Shown: positions 1,619 through 40,391 of the stretch, one piece after another
Layout of the letters: every line of letters starts with the position of its first letter
How positions within the stretch are numbered: the first letter of the stretch is position 1
NCBI GenBank assembly: GCA_964476705.1
Contig: CAYZBM010000002.1
Span: 6,980 to 70,979 of the forward strand
Source: an uncultured Rickettsiales bacterium
GTDB lineage: Bacteria > Pseudomonadota > Alphaproteobacteria > Rickettsiales > UBA6187
Direction: 5' to 3'
DNA: 64,000 bases
Notes under the pieces: model-generated
What the model saw: the letters and a program-made list of their open reading frames with translations, nothing else
What the model was told of the DNA's origin: nothing
The model's database searches: none
Translations under genes and position numbers: made by a program

Positions 1619-3814
<2,196 letters not shown>

Positions 3815-6403: not shown

Positions 6404-7285
6404 TTATCCACGTTTTCTTGGTTCTGCCGGCTTAGCAGCGGCGGAATCTAACTTCATATCTGGATCTATTTGTAAAGATTCAAGTTGCTTTATAAGGCCT
6501 ACGAAGTCATCGTAGCAACTATTAAGTAGCTTTGGATCTTGATCTAAACTATGGACAGAGTCTAGACTATCTATTACTTGCTTGCATTTTTTTTTAAATT
6601 CATTTGGATTTGAATCGCGTAATTTTATTAATTCAGCAACTCTTTTTTGTTCTGCTCCGCTTAATAATTTTTCTTTAAGATTTTTTGCTACCATTTTGCC
6701 ATTATCAAAAATTACTTCTGGAATCCTTGTAGCCCCTGGCCTTAGGTAAAAAAGTAGATCAGATTCAACTTGTCGTATTTTATTCTGGTTTATACCAAAA
6801 TCAAATTTAATTTTTGGACGCTGGCGTTCTTCTTCTAAAGAACTTGCGTTTTGAGGAGAAATTATATCTATTTTGCTAAAAGTACATTTCCCGTCTTTAA
6901 ATTCTGCAGCTACCGCTATATCAGGATTTAAGGTCTTTATTTGATATTCTAACTTTAATTCCGTTAGTTTGTCTTTTAAGTAACAAGTTCTATTAGAAGA
7001 TTTTTCTTTTTCTGGCACTAGAATTATTATTGATGGCTTTTTGCCCTCACTTTCTTCCTTCTGTAATTTATCAAGTTCAGTTTCTATAAAATCAAGTCTT
7101 GTAGACATGGTTATGCTAGTTACGGAAGCCATATCCTTAGAATTATTCATAATTAAATATACGCTTTGAACGTTAGTAGAATCCATTCTTCCTGTTACAA
7201 AAGTTATTTCAGAACCTTTTATTCTAGCAGTTTGATTGTTAAATAAAATAAGCCCTCTAAGATCTTGAGATTCTGCTTTTGCCAT
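6404..7285 (-). CDS. hypothetical protein (ORFan, 293 aa)
   Basis: Long ORF in a tight convergent arrangement with fur. No motif I recognise. Confidence 0.6.
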   Translation of the reverse strand: MAKAESQDLRGLILFNNQTARIKGSEITFVTGRMDSTNVQSVYLIMNNSKDMASVTSITMSTRLDFIETELDKLQKEESEGKKPSIIILVPEKEKSSNRTCYLKDKLTELKLEYQIKTLNPDIAVAAEFKDGKCTFSKIDIISPQNASSLEEERQRPKIKFDFGINQNKIRQVESDLLFYLRPGATRIPEVIFDNGKMVAKNLKEKLLSGAEQKRVAELIKLRDSNPNEFKKKCKQVIDSLDSVHSLDQDPKLLNSCYDDFVGLIKQLESLQIDPDMKLDSAAAKPAEPRKRG

Positions 7286-7486: not shown

Positions 7487-8839
7487 ATGTCAGCAAAACA
7501 ACAAAAAAAATTATATATAAAAACCTATGGTTGTCAGATGAATCAATATGATTCATCAAGAATGTTAGATATTATGAAGCCATATGGTTATGAATTAAGT
7601 GAAGATTATGATAATGCGGATATGGTAATTTTAAATACCTGTCATATCAGAGAAAAAGCTGCAGAAAAAGTTTATTCAGACTTAGGTCGGATTAAAAAAG
7701 CTAAAAATAAAAAAGAAAATAAAACTCCAGATGATAAAATGTTAATTGCTGTTGCAGGTTGCGTAGGTCAAGCAGAAGGCGAGGAGATATTTAAACGTGC
7801 TCCTTATGTAAATATTGTAGTGGGCCCGCAATCTTACCAATCATTACCAGATTTAATTAGCAAGGTAAATAGAGATAGAGGCCATGCAATTAATCTAGAA
7901 TTTGAAGATGATAAATTCGATAAGCTACCTGCATCTACAACTGAGCCGGTAAATGGTATGGCTATTGTGTCAGTGCAAGAAGGTTGTGATAAATTTTGTA
8001 CTTTTTGTGTAGTGCCTTATACCCGCGGGGCTGAATATTCTCGGCCAGTTGCAGATATTTATCGGGAATGTTTACAGCAAGCAAGTTTAGGTGCTACAGA
8101 AATTACTTTACTTGGGCAAAATGTTAATGCTTATCATGGAGTAGATCATGAAGGAAATGTCTGGAACTTAGGAAAATTAATAAATCATATCGCTAATATC
8201 CCGCAAATTAAAAGGATTAGATATAGTACTTCGCATCCTAGAGATATGCATGAAGAGTTATTTTTAGCTCACGGAAAACAAGAAAAATTAATGCCGTTTT
8301 TAAATTTACCAGTGCAGTCAGGTTCGGATAAAATTTTAAAAGCGATGAATCGTAAACATACCCGTAAGCAATATTTAGAAATTATAAAAAGATTAAGGCA
8401 AGAACGGCCTGACATGCAATTTAGCTCGGATTTTATAATAGGTTTTCCAGGTGAAACCGAAGAAGATTTCCAAGATACTATCGATTTAGCAAGACAAGTT
8501 AATTTTATCCAATCTTATTCTTTTAAATATAGTCCAAGACCAGGAACTCCTGGGGCCGAAATGGATAATCAAGTGGCTGAAGATGTTAAGCTCGAAAGGT
8601 TACATAGATTACAAGCTCAGATAACTACTCAGCAATTGGCTTTTAACCAATCTTGTGTTGGGAAAATTATGGAAATTATTCCAGAAAAATCTGGTAGAAT
8701 GGCGGGCCAATTAGCTGGTAAGACGGTTTATATGCAGTCGGTTTATATTAAAGATGCTCCAGAAAATATTTTAGGACAATTTATAAAAGTTAAAATACTA
8801 AATGGTTATGCAAATAGCCTTGAAGGTGAGTTAATTTAG
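7487..8839 (+). CDS. miaB: tRNA-i6A37 methylthiotransferase
   Basis: N-terminal YIKTYGCQMNQYDS, radical-SAM CDKFCTFCVVP and a C-terminal TRAM domain. 450 aa. Confidence 0.96.
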   Translation: MSAKQQKKLYIKTYGCQMNQYDSSRMLDIMKPYGYELSEDYDNADMVILNTCHIREKAAEKVYSDLGRIKKAKNKKENKTPDDKMLIAVAGCVGQAEGEEIFKRAPYVNIVVGPQSYQSLPDLISKVNRDRGHAINLEFEDDKFDKLPASTTEPVNGMAIVSVQEGCDKFCTFCVVPYTRGAEYSRPVADIYRECLQQASLGATEITLLGQNVNAYHGVDHEGNVWNLGKLINHIANIPQIKRIRYSTSHPRDMHEELFLAHGKQEKLMPFLNLPVQSGSDKILKAMNRKHTRKQYLEIIKRLRQERPDMQFSSDFIIGFPGETEEDFQDTIDLARQVNFIQSYSFKYSPRPGTPGAEMDNQVAEDVKLERLHRLQAQITTQQLAFNQSCVGKIMEIIPEKSGRMAGQLAGKTVYMQSVYIKDAPENILGQFIKVKILNGYANSLEGELI

Positions 8840-8993
8840 CAAATTGCTTTAAAAGATTAATTCTTAGTTAATTTTAGCAGTTATTTTCTTCTATATTTTT
8901 GCATATTATCGCCATTATTAACCTTATATTAAGATAATTAACCTACAATTAGTGCTGTAATATTGGTTACAGATTAATTGTAAGGGTAATATC

Positions 8994-11900
8994 TTGCCTA
9001 GTATAAGTAAAAGATCTGATGAAGAGGTTGTGGATAGAAAGGCATTGTTTAAAGATGCTTATAGTTTTTACGTGCGGAAATATTTATCGGCAGCAATAAA
9101 AAACGCAAACTTAGATCCAGAAGAAAATACTAGTCAATCTCAGTCATCATATATTACCTCAGCATTAAAAAAACATGAAGAATCAAAAAAGGCTGAAAGT
9201 AAAGCGCCTCAAACTTTTTTTGGTGTGCTGCCTAATTATATAAAACTAGCCCAAGATATATTTCGAAATAGATGGAATTATATCCCAGCTTTTCTAGGAG
9301 GAAAAAGTGCAGCTAATAAAAAATTAGCGATGATGGCTAAAGATTTAGATTTGTTAGATAGCGCTAAAATTAATGAAGCTGTAGAAGAGGTTGCTAGGAG
9401 TACCGATATAGAAGAGACTGCTTCAAGGGAAGAAGTGATTGCTCAAGCTAAATCTCTTGCCGCCAAAACGGTAAAAGATTTAAGCCAAAGAAGAGATTTA
9501 GCAAGCAGTGCACCAAAGCAAATAGCTAATGCGGCATTACGTAGAAAAGATGATAAAACTACATTAAATGATGCTCAAAAAAAAGAAGTATTCGTTAATA
9601 GTTTTGTTAGTCTTTTAGTAAAAAGAGGAATTAAATCTGATTTGAGATATTTTGGTTTGTTGTCAGAATTAGACTTAGATAATAAAAGTGAACAACAAGT
9701 AATTACTGAATTAAAAGAATGTACTATACTGCTCTATGATAACCCGAAATTTAAAGATCAAATTTCTGGTGGTACTAGAGATGAAGTAGAAAATATGGCC
9801 CAAATTATGGCCAGAGATGTTATTTCTGCTTATGATAAAGATGATTTTCATGCTGATATATCTGAATATAATGGTCGTAAAGATTTAGTTCTACTAAAAG
9901 GAATTATTGTTGGCGAAAAAGCCAAATCAGGAATTTTAACCTTAGATAGAATGCCAAAATGGGTAAGAGGTTTTGAGGAGATAATTCATGATAATGAAGA
10001 TGTTTTAAAGAAAGAAGTATCTAGTATTACTCCAGTTAAAAAAGCTCAAGAATATTTCAAAAAGAGTTGTAAACGTAGACTTACTGGAATTTTTATAGAA
10101 GCAATTAAACAGCAAACCGCTTCTAATGCCACAAAGACCAATCTTTGGTCGCTTTCAGCTAGCGCTGCACAAGCTGGAGTAGGTCCTTGGGGTGCAACAG
10201 CAGTTATCTTTGGTAGAAAGTTACTTGAAGGGACTCAAAATTCTATTTCTGAAGCTGGAATGTTAATTGGTCCTGATACTGCTAAAAGAATTTTCTCTTA
10301 TATGGAAGAGCAATTTAAGAATGTACCAAAGCAGGATATTGAAAAGCATTTGGAAAAAATTATTGATGAAGCAGTAGAGGATATTTCAAAAAATTATACT
10401 AAAAATAATAGTAATGTTAGTACTAAAGATATAGACAAAACAGTTACCGAATATTTAGAGAGATATGTAGATTTAGTAAGGCGCGGTAGATACGATCCTA
10501 CTAAATCAATGAAAGATCATATGGAAAGTGCCGCCGCAATTAAAAGCCGTAAATTATTTCATAAAACACCAAAAGATTATTTTAAAGGTGAAAGATCTTT
10601 TGATTCATTAGCTAAAGATAAGGATGAAGTAGAGAGAGATCCTGAGGGTCTAGAAGAAGAATTTGCTCGGTCTTTTGCTATAAAATTATATAAATTAGCG
10701 AGAAAAGATAAAAAACAAGTAGTAATAAGTAATAATTATCATTTAGAAGATAAAATAAAATCTGGAATTAAAAACTTAAAATTTGATGAGCATGTAGTTT
10801 TACAGAAATTATTAGGTGATCTTCCCGGAGCAGATAGTGGACAGCTTAGGGCCAAACAGGTAGAAAGTCTAGGTAGACAGCTTTATAAACAATATAAAGC
10901 TCAAGTATTAATTCCTGAAACTGAAAAAACTATAGATATTCGTAAATATGCTAAAAGACTTGCAGAATATTCATATGAGAGTGCAAATAGTAGCAAATTT
11001 AAGAAAACTGTTTTACAAGAAGGGATAGCTAAAGACCCTAGAGCCAGATTAGATTTGGCAATTAAAATGGGCAAAGATAAAGGTAACTTTATTACAAGGT
11101 TAGCCCATAAAGTAGCAGTTAAGTTGGCTAAAGCTACACCTGATGTAGCCGTTACTGAACCTAAGATTTCTTCTAAATCTAAAGATAAACAAGAACAAGA
11201 TAAAAAAGAAACAGGAAATATTTTTGTTGAAGCCGGTAGTACTAGAGCCAAGGATTTATTAATAACTAGTATTTCAAGAAATGTAAAAGTTCCGAAAAGA
11301 ACTAATTCTTTTGCGTTGTTTTTTAGTATTCCGACTATTGTATTTGCTGGAATCAATAATCCTTCGCATATTTTTGGCGCTTTACTTGATGAAGCTCGTT
11401 ATTTAAGGTCATTAAAAAAACAACAAAATACTGAAAATCTTTTTAAAATTGCCTTAACCAATTCTGAAGGTTTTGATAATGATGTAAAAGAAGCTTTTGA
11501 TGAAATACATAAGTTATTTTCCGGACAAATTAATCAGCTTAATGATAAGGGAAAAGTTTATTTTGCTTATAAGATAATGGAGGCTTACGGCAAAGATGTT
11601 AAAGATAATAGATATAATGGTGGGATGCCGGTTAAAGATCAAATCTTAAGTTCAGTGCTAAAATATCCAGATGTTTTAAAAACCTTAGCTATTGATAAAA
11701 TACAACCGAAATATTTAAGAAATCCCAAAGCCAAATTAGATTTTAAATTAGAGCATATAGATATAGCTAGAGTTATAACAATTACTCCAGAGGAAAGAAA
11801 AAGGCAATTTGTTGATGCTTTTACCACTAAACTTGCAGCAGATTTTGGTATTGATAGCGTAACTTTAGATCTAGATAAACATAATAGAAATGAACTTTAT

Positions 11901-35494: not shown

Positions 35495-36652
35495 ATGTCT
35501 AGTTCAAAAGTCAGTAATTTATTAACCGGCACTGTAAGAGCTGCTCAAACGATAGGAGCAAATAGCTCAAGATCGCCTATAATTAGGCGTTCTTTTGTCG
35601 ACTCCTTGCAAGGAAAAGGAGGTGAAAATCCAAAGCCTAGAATATTTACTTTGCCATCGCCGGCAGATGCCAGTTTTCGTACAGATCCTTGTTCAGAAAC
35701 AATAAGACTTAATAATTATTTACTTAAAGATTTACTACCTAAGGATTATAAAGATAAATTAAGTACTTTAGAAGAAGTAGCTATACACGCTAGAAATGCT
35801 ATCCAAATGGCTGATGCGATTATTGTACCAGGATCTCCTTTTACCCTTTCTGAAGAATATAGAAAACCAGTATTAATTTCTCCAGCTGCTAATATGCAAG
35901 ATAAGCTTAAAGATCCTGCGAAAAAAAATGAACTTAGAAATCTTGCTTATATTGCTGCCGCTTTGGCTAGAGGGCTACCGATAATATCATCTTGTAATGG
36001 AGCAGCACAAGTAAGTGCACTTTTAGGAGCTAAAATGTGGACTCAAGAAGAGATGCATAAAGAAAAAGAAGATTGGGACGCCATCAACCATGATCGTAAT
36101 TCTCAGCATGATATTTTATTAAATCCAGAGAGTTTTTTAGCACAATCTAGAGGAAAAAAACAAACCTTTAATAGCCATGGATTAGTTATTATCAGAAATG
36201 TTCCATCAACTCATCCTTTGCTTATAAAAGAACCATCTTATGGAACAAAAATAGAAGCTTGGGCTCCTGATGAGAGTCCGTCACTTATGAGTTCGCATGG
36301 CAATAATATAATTATTTTGTCTGATAGCATACATAGATGTTTACTTAAGGATCCTAAGGTTGCAATAGATCAGAATGAAATGAATCATACGGATGTTTAT
36401 TTAAATGCCGCATGTGAATTTTCAGTATGTGCCCATAAAAGTATGGTAAATAATGGTAACCAATATAAAGTTAGCCTTATGGATATGAACCATCCTCTGA
36501 TAAATGCATTAAAATTAACAGGATTATTTGATGGGAATAAAGTAGTGCCTGATCCAAATGATTGGACATTTAAAAGTATATCCGAAAAACTAGCAGAACT
36601 AGAAAAACTAGATCTTAATACATCTAGTCTAAGTGATACTCGAGGTAGATGA
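35495..36652 (+). CDS. hypothetical protein with a divergent class I glutamine-amidotransferase / peptidase C26-like core
   Basis: ADAIIVPGSPF ... GLPIISSCNGAAQVSALLGA (nucleophile-elbow-like CxGxQ) ... FNSHGLVI ... KIEAWAPDES follows the order of PuuD/C26 motifs. It has a ~90-aa N-terminal extension and a ~100-aa C-terminal extension. Confidence 0.45.
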   Translation: MSSSKVSNLLTGTVRAAQTIGANSSRSPIIRRSFVDSLQGKGGENPKPRIFTLPSPADASFRTDPCSETIRLNNYLLKDLLPKDYKDKLSTLEEVAIHARNAIQMADAIIVPGSPFTLSEEYRKPVLISPAANMQDKLKDPAKKNELRNLAYIAAALARGLPIISSCNGAAQVSALLGAKMWTQEEMHKEKEDWDAINHDRNSQHDILLNPESFLAQSRGKKQTFNSHGLVIIRNVPSTHPLLIKEPSYGTKIEAWAPDESPSLMSSHGNNIIILSDSIHRCLLKDPKVAIDQNEMNHTDVYLNAACEFSVCAHKSMVNNGNQYKVSLMDMNHPLINALKLTGLFDGNKVVPDPNDWTFKSISEKLAELEKLDLNTSSLSDTRGR

Positions 36653-36670: not shown

Positions 36671-37330
36671 ATGAAGATATTACTTACAACAATTTTGTTA
36701 TTATTATCTTTATCTGCCTCAGCCAGCCAGCTGGAGGGTGTATTATTATATCCTCAGGTAGTTAGGATAATTATTTTAGGTGATGAGTTTATATCGTCTG
36801 TGAATGTTGGTAAAATGCAATCTTTTCCTTATGTATTAGAAAGGCATATACGTAATACTGGTAGAAAAAAAATTCAAATAATTCCAGAATTTGGTGAGAA
36901 TTATACTAGCTTAGATGGGGTAAGATCCTTACCTAAAATTCAAGGAATGAAACCTGATATAGTAGTTTTAATGTTAGGAGCTAATGATCTAAAACAACAT
37001 ATAGATCCTAAAGAAACTTATAAAAATTTAGGTGATTTAGTTAAATTACTTACCGAGAAAAAAATTAACGTGATTTTAGTTGGAATTAAGCCCGGAATTA
37101 ACGAGGGGGATATATATAAAGAAAAATATCCAAAAATTTATGATTATTTAGCTTATAAATATAAGCTCCCTTATTACAAATCTTTATTTGAAGGGTTAGA
37201 TAAAAATCCGCAATTAGTCAACAAAGATGGATCAGTTAACGATTTTGGTATGGAATATATAGCAGAAGCTATAGCTCCTGTTATGCTGCCAACTATTGAT
37301 AAGGTAATGAAGGAAAATAATATTAAGTAG
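36671..37330 (+). CDS. secreted SGNH/GDSL-hydrolase-like protein lacking catalytic Ser and His (probable pseudoenzyme)
   Basis: Signal peptide MKILLTTILLLLSLSASAS. Block I reads GDEF instead of GDS(L). Block III GAND is conserved. Block V reads DGSVND instead of DGxHP. Confidence 0.7.
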   Translation: MKILLTTILLLLSLSASASQLEGVLLYPQVVRIIILGDEFISSVNVGKMQSFPYVLERHIRNTGRKKIQIIPEFGENYTSLDGVRSLPKIQGMKPDIVVLMLGANDLKQHIDPKETYKNLGDLVKLLTEKKINVILVGIKPGINEGDIYKEKYPKIYDYLAYKYKLPYYKSLFEGLDKNPQLVNKDGSVNDFGMEYIAEAIAPVMLPTIDKVMKENNIK

Positions 37331-37373
37331 TTGCCAGTGAAAAAATATCGTAAGATATTTTTTCACTGGCAAC
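37330..37373. terminator. perfect 20-bp-stem hairpin between convergent genes (hairpin family H, copy 2); putative bidirectional terminator
   Basis: GTTGCCAGTGAAAAAATATC-gtaa-GATATTTTTTCACTGGCAAC. It begins on the last base of the TAG stop, exactly as at 1573. Confidence 0.7.
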
Positions 37374-37397
37374 TATTTAGGTAATATTCTCTTCTCT

Positions 37398-40391
37398 CTA
37401 TTTCTTCTGGCGATCTTTTACCACAGTAATATCCGCCTTGTTACAAACAAGTAAGCCCAAAACAATATTATATAATATTATGATCATAATTGGGATAAGT
37501 AGATTCATTTTATGAGTAGTCATCATCTGATATTGCAAGCTTAATACTGCGGTTAGGCCAAATACTCCGGTCATAATGAGGACAAGTTTGCTAATATTTT
37601 TGGCTTTTAAAAATGAACTACATTTTGGACAACGATAAAATAAGGCATTAAATCCTGCAACTAGCTTAAGTAATTTATATTCATTATTACAAACAGGGCA
37701 TTTAAAGCTGGTTTTTAGAGAAAATTTACAGTTGTTTTTTTTTATAACTTCACCATTATTAAATTTACGTATTACATGCTGCAATATGCCACCATTTTTA
37801 TAATATTCTAATTCATTTTCAGTATCTATACGGCATAAGAGGCTGATAATTTTTATGTTTCCATCAGGGTAAGTGATTTTGCAATTAAGTTCGCATCTAG
37901 GGGTTATAGTTTGTAAGTCAATTATATCAATGGTTTCGTAGCCTGTAAGATTAAGAGTTTTTCTGGTTACTCCATCTTTAAAAGTTAAAGGAAGTATGCC
38001 CATGCCAACTAAATTTGAGCGATGAATCCGTTCGAAACTTTCAGCAATAACGGCTTTAACTCCAAGTAATAAAGTTCCTTTTGCGGCCCAATCGCGTGAT
38101 GAGCCCATGCCATAATCTTTTCCGGCAATAATAATTAAAGGAATATTATCAGCTTTATATTTTTGTGCGGCATCAAAAATACTTAAAGTTTCTTTAGTTT
38201 TTACATAAGTGGTAACTCCACCTTCAGTTCCTGGTGCCATCTCATTTTTAATTCTGATATTGGCAAAAGTACCACGGGTCATGATATCGTCATTACCACG
38301 CCTTGCCCCATAAGAATTAAAATCTCCGGCTTTTACACCATGTTCTTCTAAGAATTTTGCAGCTGGGGTATTTTTGGCAATAGAACCTGCTGGCGAAATA
38401 TGATCGGTGGTTATACTATCGCCCAGCAAAGCTAAAATATTAGCTTTAACTATGTCATTAACTTTTGTAGGGTTTGGTCGCATATTAGCAAAATAAGGCG
38501 GTTTTTTGATATAAGTGCTAGAATCTGACCAATTATAAGTTTGCGCATCCTCAGTTTTAATATTTTGCCAAGATTTATCGCCAGTAAATACATCTTTATA
38601 TTTTTCTTTAAACATTTCTCTAGTTACAAAATTAGCTACAATGTCGCTAATTTCTTGGGTACTAGGCCAAATATCTTTTAAATATATTTTATTACCATTA
38701 TCTCCGGTTCCTATAGGATCTTTACTTAAATCTATATTCATAGTTCCAGCTAAGGCGTAAGCTACAACTAAAGGCGGGGAGGCTAAATAATTAGCTTTTA
38801 CTTGCTGATGAACTCTTCCTTCAAAATTACGATTGCCGGATAATACCGCAGCTACAACAAGATTATTATCTTTAATAGTTTTTTCAATTTTCGGGTCAAA
38901 GGGCCCAGAATTACCAATACAAGTAGTACAGCCAAAGCCAACTATATTAAAGCCTAATTCGTTTAAAGGATTAGTTAGGCCAGATTTATCTAAATATTCA
39001 GAGACAACTTGTGATCCTGGAGCTAAAGAAGTTTTAACCCAAGGTTTTACTTTTAAGCCTAAAGCTAAAGCCTTTTTTGCAACTAACCCAGCAGCTATCA
39101 TTACTTGTGGATTGGAGGTATTAGTGCAGCTAGTTATTGCGGCAATTAATACATTAGCATTTTTTAAAGAAAAATCTTTATTCTCAACTAAAAATTCGGT
39201 ATTTAAATCAAGGTTTTTATCAAAATTAGTTTTAAAATTTTCAGCAACATTAGGAAGAATTACTTTATCTTGCGGTCTTTTTGGCCCAGAAAGACATGGC
39301 TCCACAGTACTTAAATCTAAAGTTACAATATCTGAAAATATGGGTTCAATATTATTATCGCGCCATAATCCTTGCGCTTTAGCGTAGGCTTCAATTAAAG
39401 CAATTTTATGCTCCTCACGCGCAGTTAAGTTTAGATATTTTATAGTTTCAACGTCAATTGGAAAAAATCCACAAGTTGCACCATATTCTGGAGCCATATT
39501 GGCAATCGTTGCTCGATCAGCTAAAGTTAAATAATCAAGACCAGAGCCATAAAATTCAACAAATTTTTCAACAACCCCTTTTGCTCTTAGAATATTAGTT
39601 ATAGTAAGAACTATATCTGTTGCGGTAACGCCTTCTTTAATTTTACCAGTTAATTTACAACCGATTACTTCAGGTAGCACTAATGATATTGGCTGGCCAA
39701 GCATAGCAGATTCGGCTTCAATTCCCCCAACTCCCCAACCTAAAACCGCTAAACCATTAACCATTGTAGTATGAGAATCAGTGCCAACTACCGTATCTGG
39801 AAAAATAAATCCCTCAGCATCTTGGCTTACCACATCAGCTAAATATTCAATATTTACCTGGTGGCAAATTCCGGTTCCAGGCGGTACGGTACGGAAGTTT
39901 TTAAACATTTTTTGTGCCGAGCGTAATAACTCATAACGTTCGATATTCCGTTCCATCTCTAAGGCCACATTTTTTGCTGAAGCATCTGGTGTCGCATAAA
40001 AATCTACTTGAACCGAATGGTCGATAACCAAATCAACGCGAGCTAAAGGATTAATTTTAGTTGCGTCCCCACCTAAATCATTCATTGCATCACGCATAGC
40101 GCATAGGTCAACAACGGCGGGAACTCCAGTGAAATCTTGCATTAATACTCTTGCCGGACGAAAGGCTATTTCTTCTGGATTTTTTTTATTTTCTAGCCAA
40201 ATTGCGAAGGCTTTTATATCTGAATCATTGCCATTGTAATCATGAAATCTTAAAGTATTTTCAAGTAAGATTTTTAAAGAATAAGGTAGTTTTGCAATAT
40301 CAATGCCAAACTCTTTGGCAGCACTATTTAGATCGTAATATTTATATTCTTTATAGTTAATCTTAATATTAGAAATATTTTTGTTTTCCAT
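37398..40391 (-). CDS. acnA: aconitate hydratase A with an in-frame 120-aa C-terminal zinc-ribbon + 2-TM extension
   Basis: Full AcnA/IRP motifs (TDSHT, CTNTSNP, CTTCIGNSGP, SSRDWAAKG). Homology ends at GGILQHVIRKF. The ORF then continues through CPVC-x19-CPKC and two hydrophobic helices. Confidence 0.9.
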   Translation of the reverse strand: MENKNISNIKINYKEYKYYDLNSAAKEFGIDIAKLPYSLKILLENTLRFHDYNGNDSDIKAFAIWLENKKNPEEIAFRPARVLMQDFTGVPAVVDLCAMRDAMNDLGGDATKINPLARVDLVIDHSVQVDFYATPDASAKNVALEMERNIERYELLRSAQKMFKNFRTVPPGTGICHQVNIEYLADVVSQDAEGFIFPDTVVGTDSHTTMVNGLAVLGWGVGGIEAESAMLGQPISLVLPEVIGCKLTGKIKEGVTATDIVLTITNILRAKGVVEKFVEFYGSGLDYLTLADRATIANMAPEYGATCGFFPIDVETIKYLNLTAREEHKIALIEAYAKAQGLWRDNNIEPIFSDIVTLDLSTVEPCLSGPKRPQDKVILPNVAENFKTNFDKNLDLNTEFLVENKDFSLKNANVLIAAITSCTNTSNPQVMIAAGLVAKKALALGLKVKPWVKTSLAPGSQVVSEYLDKSGLTNPLNELGFNIVGFGCTTCIGNSGPFDPKIEKTIKDNNLVVAAVLSGNRNFEGRVHQQVKANYLASPPLVVAYALAGTMNIDLSKDPIGTGDNGNKIYLKDIWPSTQEISDIVANFVTREMFKEKYKDVFTGDKSWQNIKTEDAQTYNWSDSSTYIKKPPYFANMRPNPTKVNDIVKANILALLGDSITTDHISPAGSIAKNTPAAKFLEEHGVKAGDFNSYGARRGNDDIMTRGTFANIRIKNEMAPGTEGGVTTYVKTKETLSIFDAAQKYKADNIPLIIIAGKDYGMGSSRDWAAKGTLLLGVKAVIAESFERIHRSNLVGMGILPLTFKDGVTRKTLNLTGYETIDIIDLQTITPRCELNCKITYPDGNIKIISLLCRIDTENELEYYKNGGILQHVIRKFNNGEVIKKNNCKFSLKTSFKCPVCNNEYKLLKLVAGFNALFYRCPKCSSFLKAKNISKLVLIMTGVFGLTAVLSLQYQMMTTHKMNLLIPIMIIILYNIVLGLLVCNKADITVVKDRQKK

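Follow-up and report, generated by a model that had tools for sequence, protein, structure and literature searches.

A 64,000-nucleotide stretch of DNA from an uncultured Rickettsiales bacterium (contig CAYZBM010000002.1 of GenBank assembly GCA_964476705.1), referred to below as the window, was analyzed at its acnA gene, which encodes the tricarboxylic acid cycle enzyme aconitate hydratase A (AcnA) on the minus strand. The acnA open reading frame (ORF) continued beyond the usual end of the enzyme into a tail that is encoded by a separate small gene in related genomes. An earlier note on this DNA had proposed that aconitase was fused in frame to a tail containing a zinc ribbon and two hydrophobic segments, and its description of the ORF was borne out: a single frame of 997 codons was found, the AcnA homology ended where the note had placed it, and 120 further codons followed. 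Full-length AcnA, a 14-residue linker, a CPVC-x19-CPKC motif, and two hydrophobic helices made up the fusion ORF, the last two elements being present as had been claimed. The features of the locus were as follows.

37398..40391, minus strand: acnA-tail fusion ORF, 997 amino acids (aa), ATG start
37761..40391, minus strand: AcnA proper, residues 1-877, ending ...YYKNGGILQHVIRKF (Pfam domains and homologue alignment)
37719..37760, minus strand: 14-residue linker NNGEVIKKNNCKFS, between the last AcnA-aligned residue and the codon matching Met-1 in the alignment of the small proteins
37735..37743, minus strand: run of nine A (A9; T9 on the plus strand), which also forms an A_AAA_AAA heptamer in the zero frame (read from the sequence)
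37716..37718, minus strand: CTA (Leu-892), aligned with the ATG of family Met-1, lost start codon (phmmer and family alignment)
37401..37718, minus strand: region orthologous to the free-standing small membrane protein, residues 892-997 (family hidden Markov model [HMM] and phmmer)
37620..37700, minus strand: zinc-ribbon-like CPVC-x19-CPKC with Cys898, 901, 921, and 924 (conserved Cys; four short strands in the AlphaFold2 [AF2] model)
37518..37592, minus strand: hydrophobic helix 1, residues 934-958, predicted transmembrane (AF2 helix 51-75, predicted local distance difference test score [pLDDT] about 90; hydrophobic)
37437..37499, minus strand: hydrophobic helix 2, residues 965-985, ending in the family motif LLVCNKA (AF2 helix 82-102)
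37398..37433, minus strand: C-terminal strand, basic tail (DITVVKDRQKK), and TAG stop (AF2 strand 104-109)
37328..37375, no strand assigned: perfect hairpin of 22 bp between the stop codon of the tail and the end of the convergent GDSL-lipase gene, terminator-like (-32.5 kcal/mol, z -9.07)

Both domains that define aconitate hydratase A (PF00330 and PF00694) scored above the Pfam gathering scores, with Aconitase at residues 64-549 (E 7.5e-164; 546.5 bits versus a cut-off of 28.7) and Aconitase_C at residues 678-806 (E 1.9e-43; 148.4 bits versus a cut-off of 22.8). The Pfam scan of the 997-aa ORF yielded no above-threshold match past residue 806. The 119 best AcnA homologues were 62-69% identical to the window protein and 884-931 aa long; all 119 ended about 5-23 residues past the GGILxxV motif, and none carried a long C-terminal extension. 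At 997 aa, the window protein lay outside the usual AcnA length (about 885-930 aa, with the end soon after GGILxxV), and its ORF ran 120 codons past the usual AcnA end, a distance that would stay open by chance with a probability of ~7e-5 (32% G+C, per-codon stop probability of 0.076). Stop codons were present in both other frames of the linker region. The linker itself probably derives from former C-terminal residues of AcnA together with former intergenic spacer.

The tail belongs to a family of small proteins

A phmmer search of the tail against 1.84 billion representatives retrieved 15 free-standing proteins of 104-124 aa, the best match being P0121 (E 1.3e-17, 40% identity), and a word-indexed search in 5.8 billion proteins returned no match to the tail. 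The proteins shared an N-terminal MK[FY]xxxCPxC-x19-CxxC pattern, two hydrophobic helices, an L[IV]CNKA motif, and a basic C terminus, the last being common to all aligned members. In the alignment numbering, C15, P16, C18, C38, and C41 were invariant in 18 of 18 aligned members including the tail, and the Asn of CNKA (N101) was conserved in at least 90% of members, again including the tail. A family HMM built without the window sequence scored the tail at 94-100 bits (E 9e-28). With the HMM of 17 free-standing members, the tail reached 100.1 bits, compared with 65.7-125.7 bits for the members themselves when each was left out in turn. The searches and profile scores identify the tail as an orthologue of a small family without a name (about 105-125 aa, MK[FY]xxxCPxC start) and not as a new domain. 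In architecture, motifs, and position after acnA, the tail resembled the P0121-P0139 family, whose genes lie in loci L003, L004, L005, L006, L009, L010, L012, L013, L016, L087, and L104. Every other member found was free-standing with its own ATG, whereas in the window this codon is CTA and the module is read as the C terminus of AcnA.

No Pfam or NCBIfam model matched the tail at its cut-off; the nearest, all below threshold, were TIGR04104 (cxxc_20_cxxc), DUF983, and DUF7560. Pfam zinc-ribbon models likewise matched the tail below threshold only, and searches of PDB sequences and PDB folds with the tail gave sub-threshold or generic zinc-finger matches. TIGR04104 scored 17.9 bits on the tail against a cut-off of 45 (E 0.003), with the match covering profile positions 2-81 of 93 and extending to the hydrophobic region, and weakly matched 10 of 16 family members (best E 1.4e-8). 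DUF983 (PF06170) and DUF7560 gave no match to the tail at E ≤0.1; weak matches of DUF983 were found in 4 of 18 family members (best E 3e-4), and DUF7560 matched 11 of 18. All three models describe proteins that are likewise small, with two CxxC pairs about 20 residues apart, and they may at most be distant relatives of the family. To our knowledge, none of the three has a known function.

The small gene follows acnA in related loci

Related loci were collected by look-ups and two pattern scans and were screened with the family HMM. The degenerate DNA pattern demanded ATGAAR, which confined it to free-standing members and made fusions undetectable by it; most of its 113 matches were due to chance and were screened out. 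In addition to the window, 11 distinct loci carried the small gene directly after acnA on the same strand (L003, L004, L005, L006/L007/L053 counted as one, L009, L010, L012, L013, L016, L087, and L104), three of which had titles of Rickettsiales or Rickettsiaceae metagenome-assembled genomes. The gap between the acnA stop and the ATG of the small gene was -1 to 25 nucleotides (nt) in 9 of the 11, as listed below.

L016: gap of -1 nt, TAATG overlap (around 2040-2058)
L012: gap of 0 nt, in the acnA frame; TAG directly followed by ATG at 1200-1205
L087: gap of 1 nt, TAG A ATG
L104: gap of 1 nt, TAA A ATG
L010: gap of 3 nt, in the acnA frame; TAA GTC ATG at 473-481
L005: gap of 14 nt
L003: gap of 17 nt
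L004: gap of 24 nt
L009: gap of 25 nt
L006: gap of 106 nt
L013: gap of about 121 nt

The overlapping or near-abutting stop and start codons, as in L016, L087, and L104, suggest that acnA and the small gene are often translationally coupled in the relatives. In L010 and L012, a single stop codon alone separated the acnA frame from the small gene; stop-codon readthrough or a point mutation there would yield an equivalent fusion. The closest AcnA relatives whose contigs extended past the gene, L003 (70% AcnA identity) and L004 (69%), each had an ORF with its own ATG right after acnA, of 112 and 116 aa, respectively. L003 and the window also agreed in gene order over a wider region, from ccmB-ccmA through acnA in divergent orientation, the small gene, and a GDSL lipase gene in convergent orientation to DeoC and ThiE. 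Since the gene stands separately in the relatives, the tail is a captured neighbor gene rather than a novel aconitase domain. The earlier note had named, as a finding that would speak against its proposal, a separate gene of this kind in relatives, located at the same place and beginning with a start codon of its own; the relatives do have such a gene. This finding accounts for the origin of the tail. It does not by itself make the fusion an artefact, because the aligned start codon of the window is CTA and no start exists before the zinc ribbon with a run of either eight or ten A.

Several loci differed from this arrangement. In L013, the spacer between acnA and the small gene (3413-3532) included an inverted repeat, long and imperfect, in which GCGCAAAAG motifs were abundant. 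In L001 (assembly GCA_001756385.1; AcnA identity of 67%), no small gene followed acnA, and a convergent 188-aa ORF without a Pfam match (6670-7236) overlapped the acnA stop. L011 kept the GDSL-DeoC-ThiE block, with its small gene not beside acnA. A divergent family member lay after groES-groEL in L008 (5001-5375), with a UvrD/PD-(D/E)XK helicase-nuclease and five tandem pilin paralogues of the type IV secretion system downstream (on the 8510-10353 side). Two further members were found in L025 (1773-2132; 85 bits; contig binned as Chloroflexota) and L064 (2656-3105; 54 bits; binned as Anaerolinea), where the neighbors encoded a trypsin-like peptidase, an alpha/beta hydrolase, and a DUF1232 protein.

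The small gene of the window has lost its start codon

The start of the family proteins could be placed on the tail residue by residue. In the phmmer alignments, query residue 10 (Lys) paired with residue 2 in 10 of the 15 free-standing matches, and residue 9 paired with residue 1 in 2 more. A Met occupied the column of Leu-892 in 15 of the 17 other aligned members, the remaining 2 carrying annotated N-terminal extensions. The stretch from Met-1 to CPxC aligned without insertions or deletions, and the CTA codon is two substitutions away from ATG.

The A9 run of the linker was found where the earlier note had reported it (T9 on the plus strand at 37735-37743), and its reading of the neighboring frames was correct: with ten A (A10), the frame ended ...IKKKQL-stop, giving a product of 888 aa, and with eight A (A8), it ended ...IKKTTVNFL-stop, giving one of 891 aa. 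These stops lay 3 codons (A10) or 7 codons (A8) past the run, and both lengths are typical of the closest AcnA homologues (889-892 aa). The note had also stated that the tail has no start codon before its first transmembrane helix; the first in-frame ATG, GTG, or TTG was the ATG within LVLIMTG. No ATG, GTG, or TTG preceded the zinc ribbon in the tail frame with A8, A9, or A10. A near-cognate start before the ribbon was absent with A8 or A10, and with A9 the sole candidate was an in-frame ATA inside the acnA frame. The tail frame was closed just upstream by TGA (A8) or TAA (A10). The possibility that the small gene begins on its own, in a different frame ahead of the A run, was considered as well and was rejected, because these stops stand immediately upstream with no start between. 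With no start codon available in A8 or A10, a 1-nt correction of the run would give a normal AcnA and an untranslatable small ORF, not the two-gene state of the relatives. As the frames read, ribosomes can reach the zinc-ribbon module only by translating on from AcnA.

Predicted fold, topology, and transcription of the tail

In the AF2 model of the tail (114-residue query, family alignment; pLDDT of 83), a ribbon of four strands was followed by two long helices and, at the C terminus, a further strand. From the ribbon and helices of this model, the hydrophobicity, and the charge, the tail is predicted to bind zinc and to insert into the membrane. Lys and Arg residues were clustered before helix 1 and after helix 2, and the loop between the helices was short and nearly uncharged, a charge distribution that fits both ends of the tail lying in the cytoplasm. 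With both its N and its C terminus in the cytoplasm, the tail could be joined to a cytoplasmic enzyme, which no other topology would permit.

The hairpin at 37328-37375 lies in the 67-nt gap between the acnA-tail ORF and the convergent GDSL-lipase gene and probably acts as a terminator in both directions, ending the acnA-tail unit. No terminator or comparable structure was found between the AcnA core and the tail. An internal promoter between AcnA and the tail was also considered and rejected, with promoter-like matches at the chance level (17 versus 16.4 expected). As the sole strong hairpin follows the tail stop, AcnA and the tail appear to form one transcription unit.

The A9 run

Long A runs are avoided in this genome, despite three other A9 runs in ordinary genes. 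The window contained 4 A9 runs and none longer, compared with 18.6 ± 6.1 expected from dinucleotide-preserving shuffles. These runs, at 6587-6595, 37735-37743, 57340-57348, and 58087-58095, were all sense-strand A9 in intact ORFs. Of the 19 A or T runs with 8 bases or more, 15 fell within intact ORFs (≥150 aa); the DUF218 domain was continuous across one A9 and one A8 run, and the Aconitase domain was continuous across one A8 run. The assembly therefore handles homopolymers correctly elsewhere. At the acnA ends of the relatives, an A7 run was present in L004 and none in the others, and no relative shared the fusion. The simplest account is that the A run was a mutational hotspot at which a 1-nt insertion or deletion joined acnA to the frame of its neighbor.

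Two length variants of the tssM product of Citrobacter rodentium reportedly arise by transcriptional frameshifting, according to the title of the report (PMC4256274). The likeness lies in the homopolymer-dependent short and long forms of one protein; there, to judge from the title, slippage rescues an interrupted gene, whereas here the long form is the zero-frame product. Runs of nine A or T cause highly efficient slippage of bacterial RNA polymerase in vivo, and in dnaX of Thermus thermophilus, a run of nine with stops in both other frames yields ~50% full-length product (PMC5009743). The window shares with this gene a run of nine A or T within the ORF, a long zero-frame product, and nearby stops in both other frames that lead to a shorter protein without the C-terminal module. 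In T. thermophilus, however, the device is established and used, whereas the present layout is read from sequence alone and three further A9 runs occur in ordinary genes. Given the likeness to T. thermophilus dnaX, some soluble AcnA of 888 or 891 aa would be expected from slipped transcripts, and slippage at A9 likely yields soluble AcnA as a by-product. Frameshifting of the -1 type known from Escherichia coli dnaX was matched in part: the X_XXY_YYZ heptamer was present, but the downstream stem-loop or pseudoknot was absent.

A functional fusion as the best explanation

The best explanation, for which we estimate a probability of about 0.62, is a real and functional fusion of neighboring genes that produces a membrane-tethered AcnA, with soluble AcnA likely a slippage by-product. 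This explanation builds on direct observations, namely, the open frame, the orthology and synteny of the tail, the loss of its start codon, and the absence of decay described below. In such a fusion, the acnA frame would pass through the 14-codon linker with its A9 run into a small gene whose ATG has decayed to CTA. The default product would be a 997-aa AcnA whose C-terminal module of zinc ribbon and hairpin tethers it to the inner membrane on the cytoplasmic side, with the enzyme, the ribbon, and the C terminus toward the cytoplasm and the short loop presumably toward the periplasm. A fraction of the transcripts would slip at A9 and give untethered AcnA of normal length. In the relatives, the free-standing small protein would bind AcnA and may act as its membrane anchor; gene order, tight stop/start junctions, and the logic of the fusion suggest such an interaction. 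Under the Rosetta-stone principle, proteins that are separate in most genomes and fused in another are predicted to be physically or functionally linked, a principle reportedly set out by Marcotte et al. and by Enright et al. in 1999. As the principle has it, two separately encoded proteins form one polypeptide in the window, although here the fused instance is single and comes from one metagenomic assembly.

Several points weigh against the functional fusion. The length of the A run depends on one metagenomic assembly of an uncultured organism, and a second assembly was not found in exact-product look-ups of the fused AcnA and of CcmA or in a peptide-pattern scan of Joint Genome Institute (JGI) metagenomes. 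No other fusion of acnA with the small gene occurred among the 119 AcnA homologues or in the tail searches, in which clustering may hide fusions (the window's own protein was absent from the phmmer matches). The case for an AcnA interaction consists of gene order, tight coupling, and one fusion, and the strong family members of L008, L011, and L025 and the weaker one of L064 do not adjoin acnA. Furthermore, given its AcnA distance, the tail had an identity near the lower limit of the range: in pairs with 69-71% AcnA identity, free-standing small proteins were 33-43% identical, and the tail was 30-34% identical to those of L003 and L004; in pairs with 64-66% AcnA identity, the values were 25-31% for the free-standing proteins and 23-31% for the tail.

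Alternative explanations

The earlier note had left three readings side by side, a membrane-tethered aconitase, a slippage-controlled mix of soluble and tethered forms, and an assembly artefact. The first is now the best supported; a mix is to be expected on physical grounds, although selection for it found no support; and an artefact leaves the missing start codon unexplained. A homopolymer miscall or assembly error, in which the true run is A10 or A8, acnA ends normally, and the fusion exists in the assembly only, is nonetheless an alternative to be weighed, and we consider it unlikely. A run of nine A is a type of site prone to consensus errors, this one is known from a single assembly, both corrections restore typical AcnA lengths, and all relatives keep two genes. 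However, in the corrected sequence, the stretch from the preceding stop to the ribbon would offer the small ORF neither an ATG, GTG, or TTG nor a near-cognate start, and a start loss by two substitutions is beyond a homopolymer error. The small ORF is also intact and fits its family like a working member, and the other A8 and A9 runs of the window lie in frame-continuous genes or domains.

A real but functionless fusion seems quite unlikely. By this account, a recent insertion or deletion would have opened the frame into a small gene that was already startless, and the tail would be an undecayed remnant tolerated because slippage supplies soluble AcnA. It would agree with a fusion unique to this lineage, with the low identity of the tail to its orthologues, and with the base composition of the window, which is the most A+T-rich of the family loci (32% versus 35-47% G+C), as in a degrading genome of the endosymbiont type. 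The start, however, is two changes removed from ATG, a sign that some time has elapsed, and the 106 homologous codons contain neither a stop nor a frameshift, although about 5% of the possible substitutions in the tail create a stop. With neutral drift at 0.1 substitutions per site, the frame would stay open 15% of the time, insertions and deletions not being counted. The four Cys, the Pro, CNKA, and both hydrophobic helices have been kept, and the profile score is within the family range. Judged by its open frame, its complete set of invariant residues, and this score, the tail is without signs of decay, as the functional fusion would have it. Its divergence also keeps pace with that of the free-standing orthologues, its identity to those of L003 and L004 being low but near their range.

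The A9 run might also be a selected recoding device, a special case of the functional fusion in which the run is kept to set the ratio of soluble to tethered AcnA by transcriptional slippage or -1 frameshifting, as in the tau/gamma products of dnaX (an interrupted counterpart of the run would read, for example, AAGAAAAAC). The layout matches that of T. thermophilus dnaX in its run of nine, long zero-frame product, and close stops; A_AAA_AAA is a -1 slippery heptamer; and as A9 is depleted in the window, an A9 placed exactly at the junction stands out. Selection of the run for this purpose is nevertheless the least probable of these alternatives, given that slippage could do nothing but harm at the other three A9 runs, all within ordinary genes, that no stimulatory RNA structure was found in the 80 nt past the run (-7.4 kcal/mol, z 0.22; 110 of 200 shuffles folded at least as well), that no relative has the fusion and conservation of the run is thus without a comparison, that stops in the other frames are expected about every 13 codons at this composition, and that the run is explained equally well as the hotspot that created the fusion.

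A bolder version of the functional fusion would make the small protein a dedicated inner-membrane receptor of AcnA in a Rickettsiales clade, a partnership that the genome of the window has hard-wired, with A9 splitting the output between tethered AcnA and soluble, possibly RNA-binding and regulatory, AcnA. We regard this version as rather improbable.

Significance

Aconitase is regarded as a soluble enzyme, and its apo form is viewed as an RNA-binding regulator. Neither a membrane-anchored bacterial aconitase nor a zinc-ribbon or membrane partner linked to acnA was reported in the literature searched. Genomes are known to change by events of this kind, in which coupled neighboring genes fuse at a homopolymer; this pairing and the small-protein family are new. 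The fusion may be viewed as a natural experiment, which indicates that a small membrane protein with a zinc ribbon and no annotation, closely coupled to acnA in at least 11 related loci, probably acts with AcnA, and an uncharacterised family would thereby gain a testable function. The small protein might, for example, keep AcnA membrane-bound in the vicinity of succinate dehydrogenase and the respiratory chain. In addition, the locus is a candidate case of an A9 run partitioning one enzyme between two cellular locations. Even a miscalled A run would leave two things to explain, the conserved pairing of acnA with the small gene and the absence of a start codon.

Neighboring genes

Between the GDSL lipase and DeoC genes, the window contained a 385-aa ORF with a weak Peptidase_C26 match (35495-36652). 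The GDSL lipase and DeoC genes were adjacent in L003, L010, and L011, and the ORF therefore looks like a lineage-specific insertion. Farther along the window, a 139-aa ORF for a TrbC/VirB2-type pilin (46935-47354; Pfam E 1.7e-14) was followed by a very acidic 2115-aa ORF (47582-53929), and these two ORFs would fit a type IV secretion setting of the Rickettsiales type.

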